From a virus: a DNA stretch of 64,000 nt. The stretch lies in the IMG/VR virus record IMGVR_UViG_3300029922_000039; one strand, given 5' to 3'. A model generated the notes under the pieces. The model did not search any database, was not told the DNA's origin, and worked only from the letters and a program-made list of their open reading frames with translations. Positions 2,767 to 15,415 of the stretch are shown here, in pieces (within the stretch, counting starts at the first letter, position 1; each line of letters starts with the position of its first letter). A program made the position numbers and the translations under genes.

Positions 2767-2818
2767 CAGGTACCTCCTTCCCATATAGTTCCACGATTCC
2801 GTTGAAATGTCGAGAGAA

Positions 2819-3262
2819 TTATCTGCGGTCGTGCGGAATGTCTCCTCCATACCCAACCAAATTCCGCAGTATGCACCACACCGGCGTCATCGGCACAACC
2901 CGCACATCCACCGCGCAGCAACACCGCGCCGGCACAAACTTCTCCACCACCGGCTCCGCCAGCCCAATCGCCGCCATCAGAACCTGCTTCCAGTCCGGCC
3001 GAACCGGGATAGCCCCCGCATACGCCGCGTGCCCAACGCCCTTCTTCTCCAACCGCCCAGGATTCTTCCGCACCACCCGCTTCACCCCGAGCATCTGCCG
3101 CAACGTCGCCAACTGGTTCCGCTCCGCCCGCACATCAGACGCCGAGCTCGCCGCCACAAACGTCCGCCCGTCAGGGAACTTCCAAACGTGGTGCTTCTTC
3201 GTTCGGTCCAGAACCGCCCCGTGCGCCTTCAGCAAGTCGTCGATCTCCTCTTGCACCGTCAT
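2819..3262 (-). CDS. hypothetical protein (N-terminal ~60 aa weakly HicA-like)
   Basis: 147-aa ORF. KKHHVWKFPDGRTFV resembles the HicA core only loosely. Confidence 0.45.
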   Translation of the reverse strand: MTVQEEIDDLLKAHGAVLDRTKKHHVWKFPDGRTFVAASSASDVRAERNQLATLRQMLGVKRVVRKNPGRLEKKGVGHAAYAGAIPVRPDWKQVLMAAIGLAEPVVEKFVPARCCCAVDVRVVPMTPVWCILRNLVGYGGDIPHDRR

Positions 3263-3852
3263 TCGGCCACCTGCGGGTACGGCAATACCTTCTCCATCTT
3301 TCCACCCTCAATCATCATGCGCGCCTGCCTCCTCCATGCTTCTGCCTCGTCCCGCGTTATGACTCTGTTCCGTTGTTGAGTAGGTCCGAGGCTAGATGAC
3401 TTTCTATGCAGCGGGCACAGGTCTGGAACAAACACGCCCGATGGATCAAAATGGGAGCCCTCGCCTAAAGACTCACGGAACCATCGTTCCTCAGTGCCTC
3501 CGCAAAAGAAAATAGGCTCACCAGTTGTCCTGCAACTCAAGCACACCGGCAAATCGCAAGTGAACATCTCCGACTTGCTATCCAGGTATCGATAGCCATC
3601 AACCGCCTTCGTGAACGGGGTCTTCAGTACCGGATCCTTGTACCCCGCCATCTCAAAACCAATCGGCGCATCGCAAACCAAATCCGTCAGGTTCTTCCCG
3701 CAGAACAAGCACGTCTCATAATCCCCGCGGTGTTCCATAAACTTCTGAGCGGAATCGATCATCTCCTGACGGGCTTCCGCGTCCATACCGCTGATCATCG
3801 AGGCGAAGTCGGTCACTTGATCTCCTTCAGAAACAAGTCCGACATCGCCCAT
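3259..3852 (-). CDS. Cys-rich hypothetical protein
   Basis: ATG at 3852 preceded by GGAGGG. Several CxxC pairs. ATGA-type overlap with the downstream gene. Confidence 0.55.
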   Translation of the reverse strand: MGDVGLVSEGDQVTDFASMISGMDAEARQEMIDSAQKFMEHRGDYETCLFCGKNLTDLVCDAPIGFEMAGYKDPVLKTPFTKAVDGYRYLDSKSEMFTCDLPVCLSCRTTGEPIFFCGGTEERWFRESLGEGSHFDPSGVFVPDLCPLHRKSSSLGPTQQRNRVITRDEAEAWRRQARMMIEGGKMEKVLPYPQVAE

Positions 3853-3998
3853 AGTATCCCTCCAGAAGCACAAAGAAAAAGATCAGCCAACACGTGCGGA
3901 TTCTGAGAATCAGGCGGCAAGAAAATACCCACCACTATAGCCACCACCGATACCCGAAACCCAATAAACGGAAGATACCCCAAATACGATTTATTCAT
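3813..3998 (-). CDS. small membrane protein
   Basis: 61-aa hydrophobic ORF with SD GAAGGGAG. Confidence 0.45.
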   Translation of the reverse strand: MNKSYLGYLPFIGFRVSVVAIVVGIFLPPDSQNPHVLADLFLCASGGILWAMSDLFLKEIK

Positions 3999-4168
3999 GA
4001 ATTCACTCCCTTCTGCATCGACTCTCGCAGATCATCCGAACCTTTATGTTTTAACTCCGACCAGCGCGTACCTGGAACATGCCGCTTGCCCATATGCTCC
4101 TCGTATGCCTCCAGCCCCTCTACAACCAAACCGCACACCGGGCAGATATGCTCGCCTTCACTTAGCAT
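3995..4168 (-). CDS. small zinc-finger protein
   Basis: MLSEGEHICPVCG...HMGKRH (C2H2-like). ATG at 4168 preceded by GGGAGG. Confidence 0.5.
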   Translation of the reverse strand: MLSEGEHICPVCGLVVEGLEAYEEHMGKRHVPGTRWSELKHKGSDDLRESMQKGVNS

Positions 4169-4535
4169 CGGACCTCCCACGGCGGTACGCCTCAACAATC
4201 CGATCATTGTAGATGTCAGGACGGAAGTATGCTTCCGCATCTCCGCCACCGCAAAGCAAATCCTTGATTGGCTCCAGAACTTCCGGCTCGGGCGCGAGGA
4301 ACATCCGGCGCTGCCACTCCAGAACAGTGAACTCAATCAACTCTGTCACGTCTTGTTGCGCAAGGAAAGAACCCCTGATTGCCTCCGTCTGATCTTCATT
4401 GGGAGAAGTCGGATTCTCCGACAACCACAAGAGCGCAGCCTCCACAACGTCTCGTACCCCCGCGCAGTCTGGTTCCCCCCACGCAACCCACGCCGCATGG
4501 ACCATCTCGTCAGGCGCCACTATTCGCTTGCTCAT
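4158..4535 (-). CDS. hypothetical protein
   Basis: ATG at 4535 preceded by AAGGGAG, 8 nt after the RHH stop. Confidence 0.5.
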   Translation of the reverse strand: MSKRIVAPDEMVHAAWVAWGEPDCAGVRDVVEAALLWLSENPTSPNEDQTEAIRGSFLAQQDVTELIEFTVLEWQRRMFLAPEPEVLEPIKDLLCGGGDAEAYFRPDIYNDRIVEAYRRGRSDAK

Positions 4536-4543
4536 GACTCCCT

Positions 4544-4723
4544 TCAGCACTTCGAGCCACCCTTCTGCGATGGCGTGGAAACCTTGCCGGATGGGCCACG
4601 TTGAAAAACACGCTCAAGGCGCTCAATACAAACATCGCGAAGAGTCTTCCCATTTTCAGCAGCCTCGATTTTCAAAGCACGGATCAAATCATCCGGGACT
4701 TTCCGAATATTCAAATCACTCAT
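4544..4723 (-). CDS. ribbon-helix-helix (Arc/MetJ, FitA/VapB-like) DNA-binding protein
   Basis: MSDLNIRKVPDDLIRALKIEAAENGKTLRDVCIERLE pattern. ATG at 4723 preceded by GAGGT. The rest of the 200-aa track ORF looks non-coding. Confidence 0.65.
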   Translation of the reverse strand: MSDLNIRKVPDDLIRALKIEAAENGKTLRDVCIERLERVFQRGPSGKVSTPSQKGGSKC

Positions 4724-5499
4724 CTGTAACCTCTGTAAATATTGTAACATATGAAACGGATGATATTTTTTGAAATTGAGAAAATTATGCATGAAGAGTT
4801 GGTCGGGCGAAGCCCGACTATGGGCGAGCCCACCCCCTTGAGGTCGCGTTCCCCGCAGAGAGGGCGCGGCGAGAGGGGGAAGACCTGGCCGGGGCAAGGA
4901 CGGGAGGGTGGCCGGAGAGGGGTCGAGTCCGGCGGGCAGGGCTGGCGACGGTCGGCGATGGCTGCGCAGCAAGGCGACGGAGGTCGGAAAACACTTCGCA
5001 GGGCGCCGCATCATATATAGTGGCGCATCTGCTGTGTAATCAATAGGTTGCAACGATTCAGAGCATCCTATTAGTTCAGACCATACAAAGAGGATGGAGG
5101 TTGACCCACGCAAACGCCCTGCATCGTGGCGCATTGCGTTGCGCACTTACCGCTTGGGATTGCACTCAGGGCATTGCAGCCAGCTTGCCCAACCGTGGGG
5201 GCACTTCTCACCGGGTCGAGGGCGAGGGGATGACAGGACGGCCAGCAGACGAGCGGCTGCGTCCTCGGCCTGCACGCTCACCGGCAGGACGGGCGACGGG
5301 TCGAGGGCTGGCCGGGTTACCGGGTAGGCACGCTCGCTGGTACGAATGGATGGGACGGGCGACGAGTCCGGGGCTCAAGGCCAAAACTGCCATGCCGTAG
5401 TACCTCCGAGGTCCTGCCGATGCGTCCTAGAGGCTCCTAGAGGGGCCTTTATGGCAAAAAACAGCCTCCACGCGGCGAGGGCGGCGTTATGATGAATAT

Positions 5500-5733
5500 A
5501 TGAATCATGATTGTGTTTGCCTCCGTTGCTCCGCTACATGGACAAAGAGAGTAGAGGGAAAGCCGCGCCAATGCCCAGTGTGTCATTCTGCCGCCTGGGA
5601 TAGGCCACGCCTACGCTCTACGAAGCCGCCTACGCCTAAGCCTATCGCCGATCCTCCACGGCTCACAGGTACAATCCTCGACATCATCAACAGGCCACGA
5701 AAGGAAACAACGTATGAGCCGTTTAACGACTGA
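5500..5733 (+). CDS. small zinc-ribbon protein
   Basis: CxxC...CPVC pairs. The ATG sits 6 nt after TATGAT, so the mRNA may be leaderless. Confidence 0.5.
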   Translation: MNHDCVCLRCSATWTKRVEGKPRQCPVCHSAAWDRPRLRSTKPPTPKPIADPPRLTGTILDIINRPRKETTYEPFND

Positions 5734-6190
5734 CTTCCACGCGCGTAACCGCAGCTATGTCTATGTCATATGGTCCGAGTGCGGCCGCGCCAAGATCGGC
5801 ACAACTGATAACCCTAGCGCGAGAGTCAGTACGCTGGCAAGACAAAGCCCTTACCCGCTAGATTTTATTGCGCTTATGATGTGTAAGCGGGGGCTTGGAT
5901 GGTTCTTTGAAGAGCGGCTGCATGAATTATTCAAGTCTCGGCGCGTTCATGGAGAGTGGTTTGACCTGACCCTGGAGGAGATTCACAAGGCTTTCCATGT
6001 TGGCCCGATCATCATGCAGGTAGGAAACCTTGTGCTGGAGCCTGCTATCTGCACATGCAAGGCGTGCATCGAGCGGGTTCAGGCATACATCCGGGAGAAT
6101 CCTGGGCCGTGTGATTGCTGCCCGGCTTGGCATCGTGAGCGGATGATGCTGCGCGACCCAGACACGGGCAATGTCCCTGGAGAGGAATAA
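5714..6190 (+). CDS. T5orf172 / GIY-YIG-superfamily domain protein
   Basis: YVYVIWSECGRAKIGTTDNPSARVSTL...HGEWF pattern typical of T5orf172 (MUG113-like) domains. Confidence 0.65.
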   Translation: MSRLTTDFHARNRSYVYVIWSECGRAKIGTTDNPSARVSTLARQSPYPLDFIALMMCKRGLGWFFEERLHELFKSRRVHGEWFDLTLEEIHKAFHVGPIIMQVGNLVLEPAICTCKACIERVQAYIRENPGPCDCCPAWHRERMMLRDPDTGNVPGEE

Positions 6191-6201
6191 CCTTGCTGTG
6201 G

Positions 6202-6243
6202 GCGCGGTTTAGGCGGTATATCACTAAGCCGCGCGTTTTTATT
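6202..6243 (+). terminator. intrinsic terminator
   Basis: GCGCGGTTTAG-N11-CTAAGCCGCGC stem followed by GTTTTTATT. Confidence 0.7.
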
Positions 6244-6458
6244 GCACGTTTGGGTATTTTCTCGCACAGATAGCGCGTTGCCGTTGCGCTTTTAGTTTTC
6301 TCCCCGGTTTCGCGTTGTGGCTCCCTGGGCTTGCGGTGTGGCTGGCATATATAAGGATCGTTGTCGGGCGAGTGGTTGGCGCATAGAGTGTGTGCTGTGC
6401 GCGGTAGTCGTGGTGTGTGAGGTTGCGAGGGGTGTACTAAAAATAGTTGAGAAAGTAG

Positions 6459-6487
6459 TTGACACGCTATTATGTCGCAGGCTATAA
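6459..6487 (+). promoter_or_regulatory. sigma70-like promoter
   Basis: TTGACA, 17-nt spacer, CTATAA. Followed by the AAGGCAAGGCAAGG leader and the ATG at 6541. Confidence 0.6.
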
Positions 6488-6540
6488 GTAGACAACATCA
6501 TTTAAGGATTTAGCGCAACACAGAAAGGCAAGGCAAGGAA

Positions 6541-6846
6541 ATGGATAAGACTCCCACACAAGAGAAGACTTTGCGGCTGTTTAACTTCGCGGCGGTGTCT
6601 ATATTGGCAACGTTTGCGATTGGTATAGAGGTGTTTCAGTATCAATCGGATCGCGCTGATCAGTGGATGAGGATGGACGCGGCAGCTACTTTGTCGGCTC
6701 GCTCTCCCCGACTGAAGGCCCTTCGGATAAATAATGGCCACCATGGACACAGGACAATTAAGGACACCGCAGAGAATAAAGTGCGGTGGGCTTGGGGTGT
6801 TGCTCCTGGAGACGGATACCTGTACTCCGCTTGGTGGGTTAGATAG
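6541..6846 (+). CDS. hypothetical protein (one hydrophobic segment)
   Basis: First ORF after the promoter. AAGGCAAGGAA precedes the ATG. Confidence 0.5.
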   Translation: MDKTPTQEKTLRLFNFAAVSILATFAIGIEVFQYQSDRADQWMRMDAAATLSARSPRLKALRINNGHHGHRTIKDTAENKVRWAWGVAPGDGYLYSAWWVR

Positions 6847-6887
6847 CGGTTCACCGAGACAACAGGCGGTCAGAACGGAAAACCCTT

Positions 6888-7139
6888 ATGCAAGCGTGCT
6901 CAAATAATACGAGAGGGATTTGCCAGCGGTGCGGGCGGCGAGAGCGGTTTGTTCTGGCGTCGGCGTTCAATTCTGACGGATCGTTTCGGTTTCTGTGCGC
7001 GCATTGTGAGCGGATGGAGTGGAGCCGGAACAATCGGGTTTTGTTTGACGGTGGCGCGGTTCGGCCGGTTGCCGTTGTGGAAGTGGCCGAGGTTGAGCCT
7101 GTGTGTGCGGTTGAGCGTGCACAGCTTTCGTTATTCTGA
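6888..7139 (+). CDS. small zinc-ribbon protein
   Basis: CQRCG...CAHC pairs. Confidence 0.5.
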   Translation: MQACSNNTRGICQRCGRRERFVLASAFNSDGSFRFLCAHCERMEWSRNNRVLFDGGAVRPVAVVEVAEVEPVCAVERAQLSLF

Positions 7140-7148
7140 GGGGGTTGT

Positions 7149-7373
7149 ATGTTGAAGACTGAGACGAACACGAGCGCAGTTGAAGCCCTTATATTCAAGG
7201 CGATCCGCGCACAACTCGTGAATCGCGCGCGCCGCATTGCGGAGTTCACGACTTTCTTTGAGCATGGTCAGTGGTGGGCTGAGCACCTTCCGAGCGGGGC
7301 ACAGTGGTCAGTCTGTGATTGCTCCGTCGGAGATTTTTGCTTTGAGCAGGTGACCGAGGGGGAAGAGGTATGA
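7149..7373 (+). CDS. hypothetical protein
   Basis: 74-aa ORF, tightly packed in the plus-strand operon. Confidence 0.45.
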   Translation: MLKTETNTSAVEALIFKAIRAQLVNRARRIAEFTTFFEHGQWWAEHLPSGAQWSVCDCSVGDFCFEQVTEGEEV

Positions 7374-7588
7374 AGATGGGATTGCCGTACAGCGTTGAAC
7401 TGTTGGAGCGGCACCAGAACGGAGAGGCCGCGCGGGTTGTGCTCATGCGGGCGGCTGATCATCTTTACCACACGCTACATCTGGTAGACACTATCGCCAG
7501 CCGTCGCGGGGACTTGGCTGCGATTGACCTAATGGACGGGATTCGGGCAGATATGCGGGAAGAGGCGGAGAAAGGCGGCAAGGGATGA
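7370..7588 (+). CDS. hypothetical protein
   Basis: ATGA overlap with the previous gene. Confidence 0.5.
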   Translation: MKMGLPYSVELLERHQNGEAARVVLMRAADHLYHTLHLVDTIASRRGDLAAIDLMDGIRADMREEAEKGGKG

Positions 7589-7788
7589 CACACGAGCAAA
7601 ATTTAGCCGTTCAGGCATTTAAAGACGGTCAGAAGCGCATTTTTGGCCTTACTGGTCCATCAATGGCCGCTCACCGTCAAACTATCATGCAGTTGGCCAC
7701 AGGGCGCAAGGTGCCACAATCAAAGTGCGGTATCCACGCTTTAACGTGCGCTCTTTCGCTGCTTGATCCAACCATTCGCCAATACTGA
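7585..7788 (+). CDS. hypothetical protein
   Basis: ATGA overlap with the previous gene. Confidence 0.45.
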   Translation: MTHEQNLAVQAFKDGQKRIFGLTGPSMAAHRQTIMQLATGRKVPQSKCGIHALTCALSLLDPTIRQY

Positions 7789-7800
7789 AAGGCTATCACG

Positions 7801-8067
7801 ATGAAATCCCACTCTTTCGCGATCTCCGCTGTAACCGGGCGCTGCGTCCTATGCGATCGGCACGCGGGCGACGTTGCGCACGTCCTGACCTTGGCAGGCT
7901 GCGAAACGGTAGACGATGACCGGGCCGCGGCTGCTGGGCTCGCCCTGGCGGAGGATCTGACGGCACTCATGCGCACGCCAAAAGCCGATGTAAGCGCCAA
8001 GGCGGGCCGGATGGAACGGAGTTCGCCTCTGTTTTTCGGTCAAGGCGACAATCCCACACTGTTTTAG
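7801..8067 (+). CDS. hypothetical protein
   Basis: 88-aa ORF in the operon. Confidence 0.4.
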   Translation: MKSHSFAISAVTGRCVLCDRHAGDVAHVLTLAGCETVDDDRAAAAGLALAEDLTALMRTPKADVSAKAGRMERSSPLFFGQGDNPTLF

Positions 8068-8105
8068 CACCAGCCGGATTTTCCGGCAGAAAGGCACGGC
8101 AAAAA

Positions 8106-8288
8106 ATGAAGTTCACGCTAGAGATCGAAATGGGGAACGAGGCAATGCTTTCCTATGCAGATATCGCCTCTTCTGTACGGCGCATCTTCTCCGCCTTTGC
8201 GCGCACGCACGAGGAGGTAGAAGACAACGCGGGGAGAATCTACGACGCCAACGGGAACAAGGTTGGACACTGGAGCATCGACGAATAA
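8106..8288 (+). CDS. hypothetical protein
   Basis: 60-aa ORF with protein-like composition. Confidence 0.45.
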   Translation: MKFTLEIEMGNEAMLSYADIASSVRRIFSAFARTHEEVEDNAGRIYDANGNKVGHWSIDE

Positions 8289-8374
8289 CAGCGGGCGGGG
8301 GTGACTCCGCCAAAGCCTCTAGTCTGTGACGGGGGTTTTGGCGGCGCCATTCGGGCCGGAAAGGACAGGAAAGC

Positions 8375-8650
8375 ATGAGACACGGTTACAAGATTCGCAC
8401 GTATCAGAGAGGCCAGCGCGGCGCCTTCGCCTGCGTCTTTTACGGCAACCTGGGAGAAGTTTACCGCACGCCCACACTACAAGGCGATGTGTCCGAGGGC
8501 TACAAGGACGGGTCCGACCGGCGCGCGGCCGCCTTCGCCGCCCGAGAGTGGATCCGGGAGCAGCGCGAGGCCGGCAAAACTCCACGAGACGCCAAGCAGG
8601 AACTAGGCTATAGTGGTTACGGATTCCCAACCACAGCGGGAGCGTTCTAA
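8375..8650 (+). CDS. hypothetical protein
   Basis: 91-aa ORF preceded by GGAAAGGACAGGAAAGC. Confidence 0.5.
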   Translation: MRHGYKIRTYQRGQRGAFACVFYGNLGEVYRTPTLQGDVSEGYKDGSDRRAAAFAAREWIREQREAGKTPRDAKQELGYSGYGFPTTAGAF

Positions 8651-8651
8651 A

Positions 8652-8789
8652 ATGAAAACTCTTTTGCACCTGGCCGGGCTGGCCGCTCGCCTTTACTTCT
8701 GCGCCGCTATCGTTACTTGCGCGGTTGTGCTTTTTCCTCTCGTCGTAGTCGCCGGAATCTTTACGAGGTTTAGCAGGGGGCGAGCGTGA
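8652..8789 (+). CDS. small membrane protein (45 aa)
   Basis: MKTLLHLAGLAARLYFCAAIVTCAVVLFPLVVVAGIF... Starts 2 nt after the previous stop. Below the track cut-off. Confidence 0.35.
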   Translation: MKTLLHLAGLAARLYFCAAIVTCAVVLFPLVVVAGIFTRFSRGRA

Positions 8790-8983
8790 CACATCAAGAG
8801 GCAGCTTGGCAGCATCGCCCAGATATCGAGCAAGTAGAGTTCGAACGCGCTCACCCTTACCCGTTCGCCATCGTCACAGGCAAGGCGAGCGCCACCAGTG
8901 ACACACCAGACGCACGCGCCGACCGTTCCCGCCTCATCTGGTTCGCCTTTGCCGTTGCCCTCTCTATGCTGGTCCTGTTCTAG
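8786..8983 (+). CDS. hypothetical protein with a C-terminal hydrophobic segment
   Basis: GTG start in a GTGA overlap with the previous ORF. Confidence 0.4.
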   Translation: MTHQEAAWQHRPDIEQVEFERAHPYPFAIVTGKASATSDTPDARADRSRLIWFAFAVALSMLVLF

Positions 8984-8999
8984 TCTCATATGAGACTGG
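8981..8999 (+). repeat. copy 1 of the GTCTC-N4-GAGACTGG hairpin motif
   Basis: TAGTCTC ATAT GAGACTGG followed by GATTTTGTT. Intergenic, so probably also a terminator. Confidence 0.6.
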
Positions 9000-9029
9000 G
9001 ATTTTGTTCTCTGATTTTCAATTTAACGG

Positions 9030-9058
9030 TTGACAATTCGCCTCCAATTTTGTATATA
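9030..9058 (+). promoter_or_regulatory. sigma70-like promoter
   Basis: TTGACA, 17-nt spacer, TATATA. The leader contains GCAAGGCAAGGAAAGG. Confidence 0.65.
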
Positions 9059-9092
9059 TGGAGATGCAAGGCAAGGAAAGGGACGAACCACC

Positions 9093-11129
9093 ATGCAAAA
9101 ATGGGAAAACACCAGCGCGGGAAAGATCCAGTGCAAGCGGTTTAACGAAGCGTGGAACGCGCTTAACTGGGAGCACAATACCTTTGTTGAACTAACCGGC
9201 GTTGCCGGTCAGTCTGAGCGTTCCTCCGTGCTGTCAGTTCTGTGCGGCAGTAACGCAAAGCGCGCGGACGTTACAGCGGCACAAGAGGCCATCGGCGCGC
9301 GTTTCGGGTGGACGGTCACCGCGAAGAATGTAAACGAGATTATCGAAGCCGTAAAGGCTGAGACGATCATTTTGCAACAGAATCGCCCCGTACATGACGA
9401 GCGCACCACCCCAGACGCCGAAGCAGTACGCAGGGCCGAACAACAGCGCAGGCAAGAAGAAGGAAAGCTCAAGGCTGCGCAGGCTTCGGCCGCTTTTGTG
9501 GCCCACTACGGCAGCGGCGAGAAAATCACCGTACAGCCTGGACAGATGGCCGTTGTTGCGCGAGTTTGCTTCGACAATTCCGACACGATGAGCGATTATT
9601 TCGACCGGCACGCGAGTCTGTCTCAATCGTTCGCGTTGCTGGTTGTCCCGAAGCAGGCAGAAACCGAACGCCTGGCGCGCCGTGGCGCTGAATTGCTGGC
9701 AGATGTGGAATTTGGATGGCACACTGAAAAATACAGCATGGGCCATGGAAACTACCTGGAGGCCACGGAAGGCTTCGAACTTCCGGCCGACCTTCAGGGG
9801 ATCCGCGCGAACGCACAGCGCGCACACTGGGAAATCACTTTCGAGCACCCCTACCATGACGCAAAGACGCTGGACACGTTTAAGGGTTACGGACAGGACC
9901 AGACGCCACCAGACACGCGCAAGACGGTACAGGTCGAAGGCGTGACCGTCACCGAGAACGACGAGAAGAACGGCATAGAAATTCGTTTCTCCTCGAAGCC
10001 TTCTGCCGAGGTTCTGGACTCCCTGAAGGCGAACGGCTGGCGCTGGTCGCGGTTCTCGTCGTGCTGGTACGCCAAGCGCAGCGAATCGGCGCGGCAGTTT
10101 ACACAGTCCCTCGGCGGGGCCAGCACGGAAGGCGGGCAGGAGGCGGGAGAGAAACCCGCCGCGCCTGTCTTTTCTCCGGCGGCTTCCATTGCTGCCAAGT
10201 TTCGCACCCTGGCCGACGCTCTACAGCCGAAGATTGACCACGCAGGCCGGGAGATGACCCAGAATCCCACACCCAAGCGCAATAAGGAATATCAGAGCCG
10301 TCTGCACGATTGCCGGAACATGGAGCGGACACAGAAAGCCCTGCGAGTGCTGGCCGATGCCCACGAATCCGGGAAGATTCCCGCAGAACTGGCAGGATTG
10401 AAGACGCGGGACCAGATCGGCGCAATGGTTCGTAAATCCATCGACGGCAGCAAGGGAGGATTTTATTCTTGCATCGAGTCCGACGACTACGCCGAGAAGA
10501 CGCCAGCGGCGCGGGTGCTGCAAGGAATGATTGAAGGCGACCCAGAACAGAGGGCAGAGCGCGAACGCCTGCGGAAGATTGCCACACTGGAAGCAGAAAT
10601 CAAACTATCCGATTTTCCCGGATACTTCCCCACGCCTGCCGCCGTTGTCGCTGTCATGCTTGACCGGGCGCGGCTAGAGGACGGCTTGACGGTACTGGAG
10701 CCCGAAGCCGGCAGCGGGCACATTGCCGACGGCGTGAGAGCGGCGGTCCCAGGCGTCATCTTGGAAGTAATCGAGCCTGTTTTTAAGTTGCGTGAACTCC
10801 TGGAGCTGAAGGGATACAAGTTGGTAGGACAAGACTTCATGCAGCTTTCACGCTCCGAGTTGGGCCAGTATGACCGCATCGTCATGAACCCGCCGTTTGA
10901 GCGGCAGCAAGACCTAGACCACATCCGCCACGCATACAGCCTACTAGCCCCGCGCGGCATTCTCGTTTCTGTCTTGAGCCCTAGCTTCGAATTCCGCTCA
11001 GACCGCAAGAGCGCCGACTTTCGCGCATGGCTTGAAGAGGTAAACGCCACACGGGAAAAACTTCCCGATGGATCTTTCAAGGCCAGCGGGACTGGCGTAA
11101 GCACGCGCCTCGTCGTCATCAACAAATAG
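9093..11129 (+). CDS. N6-adenine-type DNA methyltransferase with a long N-terminal extension (DUF3560-like segment)
   Basis: C-terminal VLEPEAGSGHIA (SAM motif I) and MNPPF (motif IV). Central GIEIRFSSKPSAEVLDSLKANGWRWSRFSSCWYA, a motif common in plasmid and phage polyproteins. ATG at 9093; the track start at 9030 is the promoter TTG. Confidence 0.75.
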   Translation: MQKWENTSAGKIQCKRFNEAWNALNWEHNTFVELTGVAGQSERSSVLSVLCGSNAKRADVTAAQEAIGARFGWTVTAKNVNEIIEAVKAETIILQQNRPVHDERTTPDAEAVRRAEQQRRQEEGKLKAAQASAAFVAHYGSGEKITVQPGQMAVVARVCFDNSDTMSDYFDRHASLSQSFALLVVPKQAETERLARRGAELLADVEFGWHTEKYSMGHGNYLEATEGFELPADLQGIRANAQRAHWEITFEHPYHDAKTLDTFKGYGQDQTPPDTRKTVQVEGVTVTENDEKNGIEIRFSSKPSAEVLDSLKANGWRWSRFSSCWYAKRSESARQFTQSLGGASTEGGQEAGEKPAAPVFSPAASIAAKFRTLADALQPKIDHAGREMTQNPTPKRNKEYQSRLHDCRNMERTQKALRVLADAHESGKIPAELAGLKTRDQIGAMVRKSIDGSKGGFYSCIESDDYAEKTPAARVLQGMIEGDPEQRAERERLRKIATLEAEIKLSDFPGYFPTPAAVVAVMLDRARLEDGLTVLEPEAGSGHIADGVRAAVPGVILEVIEPVFKLRELLELKGYKLVGQDFMQLSRSELGQYDRIVMNPPFERQQDLDHIRHAYSLLAPRGILVSVLSPSFEFRSDRKSADFRAWLEEVNATREKLPDGSFKASGTGVSTRLVVINK

Positions 11130-11181
11130 CTTCCCGAGGCCGGCGGAATCCGGCCGAACCACCAGAAAGGAACGGCAAGGG

Positions 11182-11460
11182 ATGACCATCACCAAGCGAA
11201 AAGGCAAGGCCCTGGAACTGGTTGAGACGCGCCGCGGTTGCGCGTGCTGCGAGACCACACCGCGCTATGACGTGATTTTCTACGATGTGCGGATACCGGG
11301 CGACCGGGGACAGCTCTGGTTTAATATGCGCGGCTACGTTGGGGAACTGCCGACACCTGAAGGCGGTTCGGTCTCGATAGGCGAAAAGTCAATCAGCGCG
11401 TGGCAGAAAGAGGCCGCCAGGCTCAACCGGGAATTCGCCGCCTCTGACCGGGCCAACTGA
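11182..11460 (+). CDS. hypothetical protein
   Basis: 92-aa ORF preceded by GAAAGGAACGGCAAGGG. Confidence 0.5.
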   Translation: MTITKRKGKALELVETRRGCACCETTPRYDVIFYDVRIPGDRGQLWFNMRGYVGELPTPEGGSVSIGEKSISAWQKEAARLNREFAASDRAN

Positions 11461-11518
11461 TCAGAATTCACACCACCAGCCGCAGGCTAGAGCGGAAATC
11501 TAGCCGAAGGGAAAAACC

Positions 11519-11863
11519 GTGAACATCGAAGAATTGACCATTGGCGAAGCCAAGCAACTCGCGGCCATGTTTGGCAGCGTGGCGACCGCCCCAGCATCGC
11601 CCGTAGTCGATCACGGCATTCAGATAGTGATTGCTGATCGTGGTTTCGTCTACGTTGGCCGCGTCAAGACCGACTCGGAATGGGTCTATGTGCGCGATGC
11701 CCTAAACCTGCGCGTATGGGGAACAACCAAGGGCCTAGGCGAACTCGTAAAAGGTCCGCTTGCCAGCACCAAGACAGACGCAACAGGGAACATCAAGATC
11801 AGCCGCAAGGCCCTCATCGCGCTGGTGGAGGTTGAGGGGGAAGCATGGAATTCAAAACTTTAA
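11519..11863 (+). CDS. hypothetical protein
   Basis: GTG start preceded by GAAGGGAAAAACC. 114 aa. Confidence 0.5.
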   Translation: MNIEELTIGEAKQLAAMFGSVATAPASPVVDHGIQIVIADRGFVYVGRVKTDSEWVYVRDALNLRVWGTTKGLGELVKGPLASTKTDATGNIKISRKALIALVEVEGEAWNSKL

Positions 11864-12081
11864 CCCTTGACGGCTCCGGCTACGGCGACGGCGACGGCGG
11901 CGACGGCTCCGGCGACGGCTCCGGCTACGGCTACGGCTACGGCTACGGCTACGGCCCCGGCTACGGCTCCGGCGACGGCTCCGGCTACGGCGACGGCGGC
12001 GACGGCTCCGGCGACGGCTCCGGCTACGGCGACGGCGACGGCGGCGACGGCTCCGGCGACGGCTCCGGCTACGGCTTATAG
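11845..12081 (+). CDS. highly acidic Gly/Tyr/Asp/Ser repeat protein (78 aa)
   Basis: ATG preceded by GAGGGGGAAGC and overlapping the previous gene end. Built almost only from GGC/GAC/TAC/TCC codons. Confidence 0.5.
   Translation: MEFKTLTLDGSGYGDGDGGDGSGDGSGYGYGYGYGYGPGYGSGDGSGYGDGGDGSGDGSGYGDGDGGDGSGDGSGYGL
11871..12075 (+). repeat. in-frame tandem repeat (GGCTCCGGCTACGGCGACGGC... units)
   Basis: Repeated GDGSGYG-type units are visible at the DNA level. Confidence 0.8.
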
Positions 12082-12375
12082 AAGAGGCAACCATGACGCA
12101 ACACGCACGAGCCCCGCCCAGCCACCGCGAGGGCGGATAAACCCAACCAAAATAGGCGGTAGCCGAAAGGCAGAAGTAGCACCCCTGGACCGGGCACGAG
12201 TACACGAGAACGAGAACCAAACCGGGACACATCCCACGGGAGGAGTTATGGAACGGGAGCGGGAAAGCCGCTCAGGGCAGGCCGGAAACCTGCCACAAGG
12301 CCGCAAGGGTAAGCCCTCAGCTTGATAAGCATGGCGCGACCGAGGAATTTACAAATTACCCAAGGAGAGAAACCA

Positions 12376-12624
12376 ATGAGCCTACAAGCCGCCATCGAAC
12401 GCAACCGGGAACGCTGGGCAGCCAAACGGGCTGGGGAAGCCCCACAGCCAACGCAGGCCGGGTTAAACGCCTATCAGATCCGCGTGGCCGATATCCCAAC
12501 CACATACGAGGTCGCAATTGGTCTCCGTAAGCCGGTGCTGGTCGGCCAGGTTCTGCCGGCGAAGACCATCACCATTTTCGGCACGTCGAAGGAAGACGCA
12601 AAGAGACGGCACGGGATTTGCTAG
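12376..12624 (+). CDS. hypothetical protein
   Basis: ATG at 12376 preceded by AAGGAGAG. Confidence 0.5.
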   Translation: MSLQAAIERNRERWAAKRAGEAPQPTQAGLNAYQIRVADIPTTYEVAIGLRKPVLVGQVLPAKTITIFGTSKEDAKRRHGIC

Positions 12625-12681
12625 CCCGGATGTTTTACCTCATCCGTTACGCGCTCCGGCGCCGCCTCGAAAGGAGATTTC

Positions 12682-12909
12682 ATGCGCAAACGAAGCTATA
12701 GCGTTGACCCGCATTACGTAACGGTCAAGTATGCTTGCAAATGCGGCGTGTGCCTCCGGCCTATTGCAGTCGGCGAAACGGCCTGGTACTGGCCCGCTAG
12801 TCGATCTATGGATTGTTCGGGAGAGACGTGCGGCGCACAGTCGGCGCGAGAGTTTAGGGCAGCGCGGCAGGATGAAGATTTTATGTCTGCGCAGTTCTTG
12901 AGGTACTAA
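12682..12909 (+). CDS. small Cys-rich protein
   Basis: CKCGVC...C..ETC. SD AAAGGAG. Confidence 0.5.
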   Translation: MRKRSYSVDPHYVTVKYACKCGVCLRPIAVGETAWYWPASRSMDCSGETCGAQSAREFRAARQDEDFMSAQFLRY

Positions 12910-12930
12910 AATGATTTCAACCGGCGGCAC

Positions 12931-12956
12931 CGTCGTTGAATAGGCACTACGGTGCC
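12931..12956 (+). promoter_or_regulatory. copy 2 of the conserved 26-nt upstream element (CGTCGTTGAATAGGCACTACGGTGCC)
   Basis: 19 nt upstream of the ASCH-A ATG. Confidence 0.5.
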
Positions 12957-12975
12957 AAGAGAAAGAAGGATCTTG

Positions 12976-13380
12976 ATGAAAGCTTTGAGCGTAAGAGCGC
13001 CGTGGTGGTGGGCAATACTCCACGGGAAACCTATTGAAAACCGAGATTGGTACACCAACTTCCGTGGACCTGTACTCCTCCATGCAAGCAAGTTCTGGAA
13101 GGATGTAGATGTTCTTGGCGACTGGAACGATGTCCTGGACAGGGCCGAAGACGATGGGCTTGATTTCCCTAGCGATTGGCCGAAAGAAGAGATGCAAGAG
13201 AAGTCTGGATGCATCGTTGGCAAGGTCACAATTGTGGACTGTGTGCGCAGCCATCCGAGCTCGTTCTTTGTCGGCGAGTGGGGCTTTGTCTTGCGCGATC
13301 CAGTGATATTCGAGAATCCTATCCCATTCAAGGGTGCTCTCGGTTTCTTCAATGTTCCTGATGAGCTTTTAGGTAGGTAA
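12976..13380 (+). CDS. ASCH (PUA-like) domain protein, copy A
   Basis: ALSVRAPWWWAILHGKPIENRDW...LLHASK pattern. ATG at 12976 preceded by AGAAGGA. Confidence 0.65.
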   Translation: MKALSVRAPWWWAILHGKPIENRDWYTNFRGPVLLHASKFWKDVDVLGDWNDVLDRAEDDGLDFPSDWPKEEMQEKSGCIVGKVTIVDCVRSHPSSFFVGEWGFVLRDPVIFENPIPFKGALGFFNVPDELLGR

Positions 13381-13405
13381 CGTCGCGATTCACCGCTACG
13401 GTACC
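13376..13405 (+). terminator. hairpin GGTAACGTCGCG...CGCTACGGTACC
   Basis: Imperfect inverted repeat starting in the stop codon. Homologous to the hairpins at 177 and 31000. Confidence 0.45.
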
Positions 13406-13433
13406 AACACCGAACCACCAGAAAGGGAACACC

Positions 13434-13535
13434 GTGAAGTTGCTTTTGGCTCTATCCGCCCCTGAACTGATCTTTCTCGCCGCCGTCGTTGTCGTCTACA
13501 CCTACAACCTGTTTTTTGGTACGAGGGTACTATGA
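13434..13535 (+). CDS. small membrane protein (33 aa)
   Basis: GTG preceded by GAAAGGGAA. ATGA overlap with the next gene. Confidence 0.35.
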   Translation: MKLLLALSAPELIFLAAVVVVYTYNLFFGTRVL

Positions 13536-13732
13536 CCACACCGAATGCATCATGGCGCCGCCGACCGGGAGACGCCGAAGAGAATCAGGAGCCGGTCACC
13601 ATCCACCAGGAGGAACCGCGCCCCAATCGCTGGGTGTTCATCGCAGGCAATTGCCTTTTGATCGTTGTGATTGTCGTGGGCGTTCTCTGTTGCCTCTACG
13701 AAGCCGGATGCTTCGATAAGGCGGTGCGCTGA
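13532..13732 (+). CDS. small membrane protein
   Basis: Hydrophobic FIAGNCLLIVVIVVGVLCCL segment. Confidence 0.5.
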   Translation: MTTPNASWRRRPGDAEENQEPVTIHQEEPRPNRWVFIAGNCLLIVVIVVGVLCCLYEAGCFDKAVR

Positions 13733-13983
13733 TGGAACACGTTCGAGAAATTGCCAAGAGGGTGGTAGCAGAGATGGAATCCAACCCGCTCCAGCTCCAC
13801 ACGGCTATCAGGGTCAGCATGATCGATTACCGATTGGCCCTGCAAGGCCGCGGCGCGATCGGTGACGCCTATGTGTCGCGCGCCTGGGCCGTTAAGCTCG
13901 GAGCCAGTGACGAACAGATGGAAGAGAAATTCTACAAGCTCCGGCAGTTGTGGGCCGCTGGCAAACTCGGCGGGAATACCTAG
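13732..13983 (+). CDS. hypothetical protein
   Basis: 83-aa ORF. Its start overlaps the previous stop. Confidence 0.5.
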   Translation: MEHVREIAKRVVAEMESNPLQLHTAIRVSMIDYRLALQGRGAIGDAYVSRAWAVKLGASDEQMEEKFYKLRQLWAAGKLGGNT

Positions 13984-14004
13984 TCTCAATTGGGATTAGA
14001 TTTC

Positions 14005-14024
14005 TGCAAGCGTTGAGGTATAAT
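14005..14024 (+). promoter_or_regulatory. TATAAT -10 box (14019-14024) with a TGCAAGCGTT operator-like motif in the spacer
   Basis: Perfect TATAAT with a weak -35 (TTAGAT). The motif is shared with other promoters in the window. Confidence 0.5.
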
Positions 14025-14046
14025 CTGCACTGAAAGGTAAGGCAAG

Positions 14047-14169
14047 ATGCTCAAGACCCATTTCCCGAAGTTCCGCAACGACTATACGCGCAGTGACCGA
14101 CGCCGATCACAGGCCCGTGTCCGCAGAGCGCAGCGCAGGGCTAAGGCCCGCTGCTCGGAGAGAGGCTAA
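14047..14169 (+). CDS. small very basic protein (40 aa)
   Basis: ATG preceded by AAAGGTAAGGCAAG. Arg-rich. Below the track cut-off. Confidence 0.35.
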   Translation: MLKTHFPKFRNDYTRSDRRRSQARVRRAQRRAKARCSERG

Positions 14170-14171
14170 CC

Positions 14172-14765
14172 ATGGCCGGGAAAATCACCTACAACTGTGC
14201 TGTTTGTGAGATCGAGAAAAAGGCCGTCAATGGCTGGTATCTGGTCTGGGTTCTGGCGGCTTCTGGAGTCGCCGAATACAGTCTTCGCGGATGGAACGAC
14301 GAGATTGCGCGAGAAGACGAAGATGTTCTTCCGGTGTGCGGCCGAGCGCACGCGCACGTTCTTCTAGATACCTTTTTTTCTCATAAAGAACCGCTTTCCT
14401 CCTCCGCGCCTTCCGCTTCCGAATGTCCGCCTGAGTCAGTTCCGCCAACTTCTGCATGTTCATCATCGGCATTATTCCCTGCCGCTGGCGCTCATCCTCA
14501 ACCTCTTGATACCACTGCCGATGTTGCTCTCTGTTTAGAATGTGATCTGGATTCAGCTTGTATGTCGGAAGCATCTTCATCACCGGCCCATAGTCTACGT
14601 CTGTCAGCCTTTCTTTCACGACCGGACCCTCCACCAGCAGTCCAGCTTCCAGAATCTGGTCAAGCCACTCCAGATTCATCCTCGGATTACCCGCGACCCT
14701 ATCAATCCGATGCCGCGGCAGGGAGCGAAAGTGGGTCAGATCAAAATGCAGCATCAGCCCCATAA
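14172..14765 (+). CDS. hypothetical protein; only the first ~75 aa look protein-like
   Basis: MAGKITYNCAVCEIEKK...VCGRAHAH, then a Ser/Pro/Ala-rich tail that is antisense to the 14227-14835 gene. Confidence 0.35.
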   Translation: MAGKITYNCAVCEIEKKAVNGWYLVWVLAASGVAEYSLRGWNDEIAREDEDVLPVCGRAHAHVLLDTFFSHKEPLSSSAPSASECPPESVPPTSACSSSALFPAAGAHPQPLDTTADVALCLECDLDSACMSEASSSPAHSLRLSAFLSRPDPPPAVQLPESGQATPDSSSDYPRPYQSDAAAGSESGSDQNAASAP

Positions 14766-14835
14766 ACAGGCGTAGGGCTCCAGGCGATAGCCGGTCTTTG
14801 TCCGAGAGGACGCGGAATGCGTTCAGGTTGAGCAC
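14227..14835 (-). CDS. winged-helix-like DNA-binding protein, lone minus-strand gene in the plus-strand block (candidate regulator)
   Basis: LSPGALRLFMGLMLHFDL...NLEWLDQILEAGLLVE wHTH-like pattern followed by a basic coiled C-terminus. GTG start; ATG at 14763 is an alternative. Confidence 0.5.
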   Translation of the reverse strand: MLNLNAFRVLSDKDRLSPGALRLFMGLMLHFDLTHFRSLPRHRIDRVAGNPRMNLEWLDQILEAGLLVEGPVVKERLTDVDYGPVMKMLPTYKLNPDHILNREQHRQWYQEVEDERQRQGIMPMMNMQKLAELTQADIRKRKARRRKAVLYEKKRYLEERARALGRTPEEHLRLLAQSRRSIREDCIRRLQKPPEPRPDTSH

Positions 14836-14863
14836 GACTCAATTGTAGATCAGGAAGGGAAGC

Positions 14864-15415
14864 ATGAGAACTAGCAGTTTGAAGTGGTGGTGGTACGGGT
14901 TCCGGTCACAGTTCCGGTTTGAGAAGTCCGTCGATATCCCGCATCTGAAGGTGCGCTGTGCTTGCCCATGGGTGGTTGTATGCCTTTTCTGGTACTTCTG
15001 CCCGATGGACTTTAAGGCATGGCCGAACACGTATCAAACCGGCATAGATATCGCCTGGCACTGGCCATGGAAGAAGCATCTTCGCCATAAGACGTGGATG
15101 AAACACCACCCAATGCCGCCGGCCGTCTACTCTGCCATGGATCTCGTGTACCTCGGCCGGGCCACTCCCGGCATGGACCGCAACGACCAGAGGTTTGTGG
15201 GCCAGACGGTCAAGAATCTTGTTGCGCAGGGTCCGGCCTGTGGGCACACCTACTTCATCGCCTCCTGCCCCGGATGCGCGCGCAAGGCGCTCTACTTCGC
15301 CACGCACCAGACGCGAGAGATCAAGGCGCTTACTCAGCAGGTCAAGGAGTTGGGTGGAAAACCAGTCTCATTTGAGACTAAGAAACTGGAGGGCGGCAAT
15401 GCCAACACCAATTGA
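14864..15415 (+). CDS. hypothetical protein (Trp-rich N-terminus)
   Basis: 183-aa ORF with SD AGGAAGGGAAGC. The C-terminal half is the more convincing part. Confidence 0.4.
   Translation: MRTSSLKWWWYGFRSQFRFEKSVDIPHLKVRCACPWVVVCLFWYFCPMDFKAWPNTYQTGIDIAWHWPWKKHLRHKTWMKHHPMPPAVYSAMDLVYLGRATPGMDRNDQRFVGQTVKNLVAQGPACGHTYFIASCPGCARKALYFATHQTREIKALTQQVKELGGKPVSFETKKLEGGNANTN
15362..15380 (-). repeat. copy 5 of the hairpin motif, reverse orientation (CCAGTCTC ATTT GAGACTA on the plus strand)
   Basis: Inside the 14864-15415 ORF. Confidence 0.55.

Follow-up and report, generated by a model that had tools for sequence, protein, structure and literature searches.

Our analysis revealed that a short repeat dispersed over the genome of an uncultured temperate phage, studied here in a stretch of 64,000 nucleotides (the window), is probably a palindrome of duplex DNA, and that its reading as a hairpin in the preliminary description is, judged from the sequences of its copies, probably wrong. 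The element has a defined architecture, is conserved in one syntenic sister phage which also bears the motif, is restricted to this clade, is biased towards gene junctions and carries no covariation of the hairpin type. As the best explanation we tentatively propose an operator or roadblock specific to this clade, at which a dimeric DNA-binding protein, with the phage-encoded p202 as the best candidate, would bind the palindrome and act on transcription.

Copies and architecture of the repeat

The motif GTCTC-N4-GAGACTGG is found at five places in the window and in none of 100 dinucleotide-preserving shuffles, so the repeat is real and far above chance, just as first described. The master copy TAGTCTCATATGAGACTGG at 8981-8999 (plus strand) is a perfect 16-bp palindrome, AGTCTCATATGAGACT, followed by GG; the others are TAGTCTCAAATGAGACTGG in minus-strand reading at 15362-15380, and on the plus strand CAGTCTCGTTTGAGACTGG at 25955-25973, CAGTCTCAAACGAGACTGG at 41486-41504 and CGGTCTCATGTGAGACTGG at 50294-50312. 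Matches to GTCTCNNNNGAGACTGG, again obtained in 0 of 100 shuffles, lie at 8983-8999(+), 15362-15378(-), 25957-25973(+), 41488-41504(+) and 50296-50312(+). One further exact copy and one near-copy are located just beyond the window, and the phage thus has 6-7 copies in total, scattered over about 60 kb or more. Their spacing is fairly even (interval CV 0.40, P=0.03), the statistic being only marginal. The palindrome is the sole over-represented dyad in the window, and the sequences flanking the five copies are mutually unrelated. As for degenerate copies in the window, six matches with three mismatches were found outside the true sites vs 5.6 expected, so that the relative once suspected at 2228-2247 has no support.

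The element is an 18-19-bp near-palindrome, (C)AGTCTCA-NN-TGAGACT(G), with an extra G on one side, that is, a 7-2-7 dyad. The four positions previously regarded as a free loop are in fact partly conserved: the first and the fourth are A and T (GTCTCA-NN-TGAGAC) in 9 of 16 independent family sites vs 0 of 23 background sites (Fisher p=5e-5). The dyad therefore runs into this supposed loop and leaves a centre of 2 nt, which cannot be a hairpin loop. The site has invariant arms and a variable, AT-rich centre, which is the usual pattern of operators for dimers. By its form the site is what a dimeric winged-helix type of protein would read, namely a 16-20-bp palindrome with conserved half-sites, and not the asymmetric site of about 13 bp that a monomer reads at stoperators, being dyad-symmetric with a one-sided GG. 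This GG is fixed whichever way the site faces transcription (18/18, vs 9/18 on the other arm, p=0.001); recognition of a duplex would account for this easily, whereas an RNA would bear it as a 3'-UGG in one copy and as a 5'-CCA in the others, which is awkward.

The variants of the site lead to the same view. At the outermost arm position the seven copies, two of them from outside the window, have C, C, C, T, T, G and G, with a G/G mismatch in two, and hence the wobble at the outer pair, once taken as a sign of strand specificity, is a weak argument. Among the diverged copies in the family genomes (136 kb), uncompensated changes number 8 (3.0 expected), compensated changes 3 (2.6 expected) and wobble changes 0 (1.5 expected). 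This excess of uncompensated changes indicates selection on the sequence and not on pairing. Altogether two simple tests, the extension of the dyad into the loop and the count of compensated vs uncompensated variants, have overturned the hairpin call, and they are reusable on other repeats.

Gene junctions, the sister phage and wider distribution

The copies cluster at gene junctions, with 4 of 5 lying no more than 45 nt from a boundary (P≈0.005). This bias may possibly mirror just the tolerance of a compact genome for a 19-bp motif, so a transcriptional role is not proven by placement. Half of the copies come after stop codons, and three precede a Shine-Dalgarno sequence (GGAGG or AGGAG) and a start codon by 7-22 nt; between motif and start codons only these generic GGAGG/AGGAG sequences are in common. 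The orientation relative to transcription is shared by 5 of 6 exact copies (p=0.22), or by 6 of 7 if the near-copy is included (p=0.125). Three plus-oriented copies do lie opposite minus-strand genes, as noticed earlier; a rule that the motif is always on the template strand was dropped, since the gene calls put the 8981 copy on the sense strand and 5 of 6 is not significant.

The master copy at 8981-8999 overlaps the TAG stop of a 65-aa gene (8786-8983, plus strand) and sits at the boundary between an array of small early genes and a primase-methyltransferase block. A promoter candidate that reads as sigma-70-like, TTGACA-17-TATATA at 9030-9058 (plus strand), lies 31 bp past it and fronts the 678-aa primase-like/methyltransferase gene (9093-11129). 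In this phage only, the copy folds into a stem of 11 bp (-14.4 kcal/mol) with a U-rich tail behind it. The copy at 15362 is within the last 17 codons of the gene 14864-15415(+), where it encodes PVSFET, and ends 7 nt ahead of a GGAGG Shine-Dalgarno sequence and 18 nt ahead of the ATG at 15399. Similarly, the copy at 25955 is within the last 14 codons of the gene 25930-26442(-) and precedes by 21 nt the ATG of an RlaP-like gene (24965-25933, minus strand); on the sense strand a C replaces the usual T before GAGAC, by which an in-frame TGA is avoided. The copy at 41486 abuts the TAA stop of RecT (41505-42461, minus strand) and behaves as an indel of about 21 nt relative to the sister phage; at the same position a relative, L124 (RecT 76%), retains CCAGTCTC-TTTT-AGGACTC. 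Finally, the copy at 50294 is inside a 3239-aa gene (44781-54500, minus strand) as codons 1397-1402 (PVSHET). The motif is lacking in the main divergent regulatory region at 5394-5713, where other repeats occur.

The coding copies had been described as lying all in different reading frames; in fact those at 15362 and 50294 and the two outside the window share the common frame (P/S)-V-S-x-E-T, and 25955 alone deviates. Protein conservation is nevertheless insufficient as an explanation, because non-coding copies exist, and here the preliminary description was right. Moreover, the T-rich 3' flanks, which had been noticed at first, carry in antisense the Lys/Glu/Gly codons with which upstream genes encode their C-terminal tails.

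The conservation of the element in relatives turned out to be of two kinds, for it is missing from most of them and strikingly kept in the one syntenic sister phage. There the master copy (9060-9078 in the sister, L211) is identical at 18 of 19 nt and likewise placed on a stop codon, between flanking genes that are non-homologous and without T-run, extended stem or promoter. At the site homologous to 50294 the sister has GAA GTC TCG CAT GAG ACA (EVSHET), a near-match which already encodes VSHET, so that the full motif at 50294 was completed in place by point changes. In one sister copy the sixth pair is flipped (TGTCTC..GAGACA), and another, at L211 13217, is bordered on one side by a GC-rich inverted repeat with a T-run and on the other by the start of a gene. 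As only two genomes carry the motif, comparative power is low.

Beyond these two phages the element seems to be absent. In 80 RlaP relatives from metagenomes the motif was found neither upstream of RlaP nor anywhere in about 636 kb; these relatives have no neighbouring genes in common with the window, and recurrent hairpin families of the relatives' own were not above chance. The master 18-mer has no match in IMG/VR and just 3, from unrelated taxa, in 596 Gb of genomes, which refutes the idea of a host repeat. Scanning IMG/VR for the motif only (14 specified bases) gave scattered single matches at background level; no relatives of RecT were found in IMG/VR, and among deposited phages no cultured relatives were found by megablast and tblastn. 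Rfam gave no match at the motif or in structured intergenic regions. In a distant p147-encoding phage (L218), an apparent enrichment of near-dyads was discarded as general GA-rich word bias.

Candidate proteins and rival explanations

As a candidate binder, p202 merits the most attention. It is encoded at 14227-14835 on the minus strand as a lone opposite-strand gene within a rightward operon. Its N-terminal domain is winged-helix-like, its C-terminus is long and helical, and there are matches, all weak, to the profiles of HTH_20/ArsR, MarR, Rrf2, Crp-HTH and HxlR (4gcv). It is present in both phages with 30% identity and its reversed position is kept; relatives in IMG/VR were not found, and a single-sequence structure model was too poor for use. 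The GTG start of p202 follows the end of a -10-like hexamer, TACAAT, by 6 nt, so that the transcript is possibly leaderless. No dyad or inverted repeat is present upstream of p202 in the window or in L211, and the link between p202 and the motif is therefore one that we infer from circumstantial evidence. A second protein, p147 (2819-3262, minus strand; 5 homologues in 5.8 billion proteins), is small and clade-restricted and is common to both motif-bearing phages with 53% identity. Its N-terminal domain has the order alpha-beta-beta-beta-alpha, and its C-terminus is Cys-rich and conserved. Its best fold matches are the HicA-family structures 5yrz_B and 1whz, and the topology fits; with E of 0.6-0.9 these matches are too weak for an assignment as a HicA-like protein, which remains a lead.

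The 3239-aa protein, of virion type, has only ddrB-ParB and AAA_34 in Pfam and otherwise PHROGs of unknown function, leaving more than 2,800 residues without annotation; it gave no PDB sequence match, no coherent T7/N4 motif set and no DxDGD. The domains of this polyvalent protein are ParB-superfamily, methyltransferase-like and helicase. The phage also encodes an integrase, RecT, exonucleases and an RHH protein (4544-5134). Pfam, PHROGs, PDB sequence and catalytic-motif searches, which covered about 84 kb of the genome, detected neither an RNAP nor a sigma factor, and a homologue of the sigma factor of L214 is in neither the window phage nor its sister.

According to the operator or roadblock reading, a sequence-specific protein encoded by the phage clade, probably a dimer, would read the duplex palindrome. 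The strongest site would be the perfect palindrome at 8981, between the early small genes and the primase/methyltransferase block, and the 5-6 weaker copies would be placed where the packed genome tolerates 19 fixed bases, namely just past stop codons or in the last codons ahead of the next ribosome-binding site. The bound protein would then control whether transcription passes or starts there, much as is the case at mycobacteriophage stoperators. Several observations were counted against the operator reading: the identity of p202 between the phages is as low as 30% despite identical sites, its promoter has no dyad in either phage, the region 5394-5713 is devoid of the motif, the 8981 copy resembles a competent intrinsic terminator in this phage, and the three copies 7-22 nt before a Shine-Dalgarno sequence would also suit a compact promoter or mRNA element.

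Among the roles first offered, protein binding matches this best reading, and that of a strand-specific RNA or ssDNA hairpin, acting as terminator or antisense terminator, did not hold up. In its present form the hairpin explanation supposes a terminator on the GAGACTGG strand (sense at 8981 and antisense elsewhere), or a hairpin for mRNA processing or stability at cistron junctions, possibly read by p147, and we regard it as unlikely. It is true that all copies fold on the GAGACTGG strand, with stems of 6-11 bp and -8.9 to -14.4 kcal/mol, that several abut stop codons, that several further copies score terminator-like, and that 8981 has its extended stem and U-rich tail at an operon end with a promoter-like site after it; p147, with its dsRBD/HicA-like topology, is in both motif phages, and one copy of the sister has the flipped sixth pair. 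However, a stem followed by a U-run at a unit end is found at 8981 only, the conserved sister copy has no U-run, and 5 of 6 copies could affect antisense transcripts only, with an orientation bias that is not significant. Moreover the palindrome extends through the loop, compensated and wobble variants are not in excess, the side of the RNA on which the invariant GG falls would differ between copies, the T-rich flanks correspond to K/E codons in antisense, and the HicA match of p147 is weak. Intrinsic (Rho-independent) terminators need no fixed sequence, and ordinary ones, with a GC-rich stem and T-run of unrelated sequence, are present elsewhere in this phage. Scans for consensus promoters and terminators gave counts at background.

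A compact phage-specific promoter, read by an unrecognised polymerase or by a factor redirecting the host RNAP, is quite unlikely in our opinion. Its layout could be T7-like, with a purine-rich upstream tract, CCAGTCTC as specificity element, an AT-rich melting region and +1 at GAGAC, or it could be an N4-like hairpin on the template strand. Indeed, R-rich/CCAGTCTC/W-rich N4/GAGACYR is the sense-strand reading of 5 of 6 copies, three of these are the ones closely followed by a ribosome-binding site and start codon, the sister copy at L211 13217 has a gene start on one side and the inverted repeat with T-run on the other, and a large part of the virion-type protein is unannotated. Against it, neither an RNAP nor a sigma factor was detected, the conserved master copy points the wrong way, antisense to the operon of small genes, the bias in orientation lacks significance, and a T7-type layout leaves the dyad symmetry unexplained. 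The N4-like version with a giant vRNAP was rejected, for no polymerase signal was found and the conservation pattern is opposite to that of N4, where 3-nt loops are conserved and stems partly variable.

It is very unlikely that the copies are genome-organising sites, that is, loading palindromes like those of parS, KorB or N15, possibly for the ddrB-ParB domain of the giant protein, or sites of replication or packaging. The 16-18-bp palindrome with its 2-bp centre, the rather even spacing, the ParB-superfamily domain and a junction placement due to mere motif tolerance would agree with this; but the spacing statistic is marginal, the Pfam hits over about 84 kb include neither ParA nor canonical ParB partition families, the ddrB-ParB domain itself is no sequence-reading HTH, and with an integrase present a plasmid lifestyle is not needed. 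In a related version, to which we give the slimmest chance of all, the palindromes would be parS-like sites at which the injected 3239-aa polyvalent protein loads or docks onto the incoming genome; delivered by the virion, this protein would read evenly spaced sites and so protect, organise or activate its own DNA. Highly improbable, too, is a recombination junction or small mobile repeat at module boundaries, copied or exchanged between phages. The master copy is kept amid non-homologous flanking genes, the RecT copy behaves as an indel, the RlaP gene downstream of 25955 occurs in unrelated contexts across 80 relatives, and RecT and exonucleases are phage-encoded; however, target-site duplications and longer shared flanks are absent, the 50294 copy arose from point changes in a conserved coding segment, the motif is missing from all other phages and genomes searched, and the 88-kb and 125-kb variants part at a breakpoint that does not coincide with a copy. 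The mobile repeat suggested at the outset is thus disfavoured.

Comparison with known systems

At the 8981 copy the element resembles intrinsic terminators, since the operon ends there with stem, loop and U-rich tail; most of the copies, however, are directed antisense, and no U-run follows the conserved one in the sister. The RK2 KorB operators, the N15 centromere sites and parS are 13-16-bp palindromes, dispersed on one replicon and read by dimers. The scattered sites here and the ParB-superfamily domain in the giant protein are similar to these; unlike them, the phage has an integrase, a ParA/ParB module was not found, and the ParB-like domain is without recognised HTH. Operators of the MarR/ArsR/HxlR type are 16-20-bp palindromes whose conserved half-sites are separated by about one helical turn and whose AT-rich centre varies, and operators of dimeric winged-helix proteins normally overlap the regulator's own promoter. 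Our element shares the palindrome form, and the candidate p202 weakly matches such families, but no copy is at the p202 promoter and the sites extend across about 60 kb or more.

In phage N4, three promoters at one genome end depend on the vRNAP; their 3-nt loop (-11 purine, -10G) is conserved and their stems vary in part (PMC4496689). Short inverted repeats (5-7-bp stem), a podophage-like genome, a giant (>3000 aa) virion-type protein and, in 5 of 6 copies, a would-be hairpin on the template strand a few nt upstream of a 5' UTR are found here as well. The differences are that our stems are invariant and the centre variable, that the copies are dispersed with the master copy on the sense strand, and that a homologue of the vRNAP (N4 gp50) is not detectable here.

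The ESAS of Cluster K phages have 17-bp arms and variable spacers of 4-13 bp, always occur with a 13-bp RBS-containing SAS 3-7 bp before the start, and have no known function (PMC3203893). Like them, our sites are clade-specific imperfect inverted repeats upstream of some gene starts, sometimes over the upstream stop codon, with one arm nearer to the consensus, mostly one orientation with rare reversal, and no presence in the host genome. Unlike ESAS, the arms are 7-8 bp and the spacer is constant at 2 bp (N4 if counted from the 5-bp cores), a partner resembling the SAS is missing, and half of the copies come after stops and not before starts.

The stoperators of Cluster A mycobacteriophages, read by the L5 gp71-type repressor, are asymmetric 13-mers bound by a monomer, with more than 20 per genome and an orientation strictly tied to transcription, and are thought to halt transcription elongation as well as initiation (PMC9283540). 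Here the site is a 7-2-7 palindrome with GG in 6-7 copies, the orientation (5 of 6) is not significant, and the repressor is only a candidate. What the two have in common is a clade-specific short site, repeated genome-wide in or at tiny intergenic spaces within operons, and read by a protein of the phage and not of the host, as is supposed for our element. The finding does not open a long-standing question. If true, it would offer a DNA site that is well defined, together with a few candidate proteins (p202, p147). More specifically, an uncultured peat/soil phage clade would then punctuate its 88-126 kb genome with a few identical palindromic sites, as a symmetric counterpart of the mycobacteriophage stoperators and ESAS in a lineage without cultured relatives.

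A clade-specific palindromic repeat

The GTCTC-N4-GAGAC palindrome is a real, clade-specific and strongly sequence-constrained repeat. An exact search of the window finds GTCTCNNNNGAGACTGG five times, at 8983-8999(+), 15362-15378(-), 25957-25973(+), 41488-41504(+) and 50296-50312(+), while 100 dinucleotide-preserving shuffles of the window gave 0 matches, which confirms the five-copy repeat of the preliminary description. Without its partner arm, GAGACTGG has just one further occurrence in the window, and GTCTC-4-GAGAC is the only over-represented dyad there. The degenerate copy once suspected at 2228-2247 gains no statistical support, as the count of three-mismatch matches away from the true sites, 6, is close to the 5.6 expected. 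Just beyond the window lie an exact copy, GAGTCTCATTCGAGACTGG (L127 5950-5968), and a near-copy ending in TGA (L129 14226-14244), the latter in the 88-kb variant only. As a separate observation, the gene-free 290 nt at 2181-2470 (sense on the minus strand) have a very stable predicted fold (-108.9 kcal/mol), and they contain hairpins of the GAGTTCCCCGCAAGGGGA and GAGTTCCCTACGGGGAAGATGCGCGGCG types, which reappear in the relative L124 downstream of its RecT gene (1740-1790). These may belong to one structured non-coding RNA family; searching 2181-2470 against Rfam by E-value gave no credible match.

The window is part of a phage genome known from metagenomic contigs of two sizes, 88 kb and 126 kb, that come from many peat and bog samples, and no cultured relative was found in the deposited-phage collection. 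It encodes SU10-type portal and adaptor proteins, a tailspike-like protein, a tyrosine integrase, RecT with exonucleases, a 678-aa primase-like/methyltransferase protein, an 878-aa DnaB-type helicase with an intein (32538-35174, minus strand) and a 3239-aa polyvalent protein (44781-54500, minus strand) with ddrB-ParB (aa 935-1070), methyltransferase-like (~aa 1308-1596) and AAA_34 helicase (aa 1938-2086) regions. More than 2,800 residues of the latter are without annotation, and its gene adjoins those of unannotated 794-aa and 1354-aa proteins, an arrangement resembling the podophage ejection-protein block. The intein has a LAGLIDADG_3 endonuclease domain, while DnaB of the sister phage (481 aa, L122) has no intein. 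The 88-kb and 125-kb contig types show 99.6-100% identity in their common part and then diverge completely (position 10971 of contigs L129/L130, ~300 nt before the window start); the explanation is either a pair of phage variants with ~75 kb in common or an assembly join, and the window agrees with the 125-kb type. Gene 11867-12325 contains a tandem repeat, GACGGCTCCGGC, with a period of 6/12/18 and ~17 copies (11869-12076, plus strand), whose product is of low complexity and rich in Gly, Asp, Ser and Tyr. Moreover, 12952-13380(+) and 31024-31431(-) are an inverted pair of paralogous genes (84% nucleotide identity over 161 nt) with homologues in L211, L126, L123 and L175.

Among relatives the motif is narrowly distributed. 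No copy was found anywhere in the ~636 kb of 80 RlaP-like relatives (47-85% identity), including upstream of RlaP, and these share no gene neighbours with the window. It is also absent from the relatives reached through RecT and the 678-aa protein (L123, L124, L126, L212, L213, L214); in L124, CCAGTCTC-TTTT-AGGACTC is kept immediately after the RecT stop. One syntenic sister phage was found, contig SRR32476544_5422 (L122 and L211), in which GAGTCTCATATGAGACTGG at L211 9060-9078 is identical to window 8981-8999 at 18/19 nt, ATAT centre included. This copy, too, extends over a stop codon, that of the last small gene before the methyltransferase-gene block, and the flanking genes on both sides are non-homologous between the two phages. 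The sister also has TTGTCTCAACTGAGACAC in an intergenic gap, with a start codon 22 nt further on, and GTCTCGCATGAGAC at the site homologous to 50294; in total 9 of its dyads have at most one mismatch, against ~1.3-1.6 expected. A search for the 18-mer of the best-conserved copy, 8981, gave no hit in IMG/VR and 3 hits in 596 Gb of genomes, all from unrelated taxa; it is therefore not a host repeat. In L218 (IMGVR_UViG_3300047160_015936), positions 1-6000 have 6.5 GTCTC/GAGAC per kb against a background of 1.8; this enrichment was rejected as a compositional artefact, GA-rich words (GACGA, GAAGA, AAGAC) being in excess there generally.

Gene junctions and the origin of the copies

According to gene calls, with which codon statistics agree, the window has a leftward gene block (1-5393), a rightward one (5714-16261) and a second leftward one from 16352 on. 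Of the five window copies, four lie within 45 nt of a gene boundary, a zone covering 18.8% of the window (P=0.005). Copy 8981 coincides in part with the TAG stop of a 65-aa gene and 41486 abuts the RecT TAA stop, while copies 15362, 25955 and L127 are within the last 6-17 codons of a gene, the next start codon following 18-32 nt on with GGAGG or AGGAG between. The GAGACTGG strand is the template strand in 5/6 exact copies, which is not significant (p=0.22), and the exception is the best-conserved copy 8981. That the coding copies lie in different frames holds for 25955, where a C replaces the T that would make an in-frame TGA, and fails for the other four of five, all reading V-S-x-E-T; some variable positions of the motif are thus due to coding constraints.

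The sequences flanking the five copies cannot be aligned with one another. At the site homologous to 50294 the sister encodes EVSHET (GAA GTC TCG CAT GAG ACA) and the window PVSHET (CCA GTC TCA CAT GAG ACC), and therefore point changes at this site turned a near-match, already supplied by the protein sequence, into the full motif. The motif at the RecT stop behaves as a ~21-nt indel relative to the sister. Downstream of RecT, a ~120-nt non-coding block (window ~41330-41480, minus sense) is kept in the sister (L122 10985-11107), with CAGCGCACGGGTCGGAC, ACTGCCGGCGG and ATCTCCGG..GATGCG in common; it could be a leader or small RNA, and it has no Rfam match.

The 320-nt divergent regulatory gap at 5394-5713 has no copy of the GTCTC dyad. 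It contains a TCCTAGAGG tandem pair (5425-5444), an AT-rich palindrome (5489-5508) and an uncalled 77-aa CxxC...CxxC zinc-ribbon ORF (5500-5733, plus strand), and its elements are probably the main early switch.

Duplex site or hairpin

The preliminary description took the repeat for a strand-specific hairpin with a variable four-base loop, possibly a terminator. The loop turns out to be constrained: A at loop position 1 together with T at position 4 is found in 9/16 independent family sites and in 0/23 same-core background sites (Fisher p=5e-5). The element is thus the palindrome (C)AGTCTCA-NN-TGAGACT(G), with arms of 7 or 8 bp (7-2-7 or 8-2-8), and the two bases left at its centre are too few to make a loop. 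In the diverged copies of both genomes, uncompensated changes in one arm exceed expectation (8 against 3.0), and there is no enrichment of compensated (3 against 2.6) or wobble (0 against 1.5) changes. Moreover, an extra GG is invariant in 18/18 sites, while its mirror positions match in 9/18 (p=0.001), for either direction of the site relative to transcription; this is natural for a duplex site, and in RNA the bases would be 3'-UGG in one copy and 5'-CCA in the others. The T-rich flank, read earlier as a sign of termination, consists of Lys/Glu/Gly codons from the tails of upstream genes, read on the opposite strand, and is missing at the conserved sister copy, after which neither a T-run nor a sigma-70-like promoter follows. 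Ordinary signals are also present in the phage: at about 6270 a terminator made of a GC-rich stem with a T-run, and at about 6480 and 9030 sigma-70-like promoters close to consensus, none of them related to the motif in sequence. These five results point to a duplex site in preference to a hairpin.

Candidate binders and competing readings

Our most likely reading, tentatively held, is that a dimeric phage-encoded protein binds the motif as duplex DNA and acts on transcription at gene junctions. The two motif-bearing phages have few early proteins in common, and two, p202 and p147, are exclusive to them among the loci examined. The gene of p202 (14227-14835, minus strand) is in both phages a lone opposite-strand gene inside the rightward operon. 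Its promoter-like site (14842-14870, minus strand; TTCTCA-17-TACAAT) has the -10-like TACAAT ending 6 nt before the GTG start, so p202 appears leaderless, in an arrangement reminiscent of lambda cI from PRM. The N-terminal 125 residues define a family with 32 representatives; the matches of its members to winged-helix families are weak but consistent (HTH_20/ArsR, Crp-HTH, Rrf2, MarR, and HxlR with 4gcv, E=0.013), and the C-terminus is long and helical. Winged-helix proteins of such families are usually dimeric on palindromes. Against p202 as the binder, the two orthologues have only 30% identity and neither phage has a dyad at the p202 promoter. IMG/VR held no relatives useful for co-occurrence of motif and protein.

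An RNA or ssDNA hairpin is rather unlikely, and what still speaks for it is mainly the resemblance of 8981 to a terminator and p147 (2819-3262, minus strand), which has 53% identity between both phages and only five homologues in 5.8 billion proteins; its N-terminal domain is of alpha-beta-beta-beta-alpha topology, with weak best fold matches to HicA proteins. That the motif is a compact phage promoter we regard as improbable: searches with Pfam, PHROGs and NCBIfam, of PDB sequences and for catalytic motifs turned up no RNA polymerase and no sigma factor. The more distant, dyad-free relative L214 encodes a sigma-70 r2/r4-type factor (1814-2809, minus strand) besides GroES/GroEL homologues, and this factor has no homologue in the window phage or the sister. 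A genome-organising, parS-like site, perhaps for the giant ParB-domain protein, seems quite improbable, and a recombination junction or mobile repeat very improbable. A small mobile repeat had been proposed earlier; the copies are without target duplications or common flanks and 50294 was completed in place, which looks like selection for sites and not transposition.

Among known systems the motif comes nearest to the mycobacteriophage stoperators (PMC9283540) and to the Cluster K inverted repeats called ESAS (PMC3203893); its symmetry, its copy number and its partner elements set it apart from both. N4 hairpin promoters need vRNAP, and in them the 3-nt loop is conserved and the stem varies in part (PMC4496689); the motif shares none of these features.
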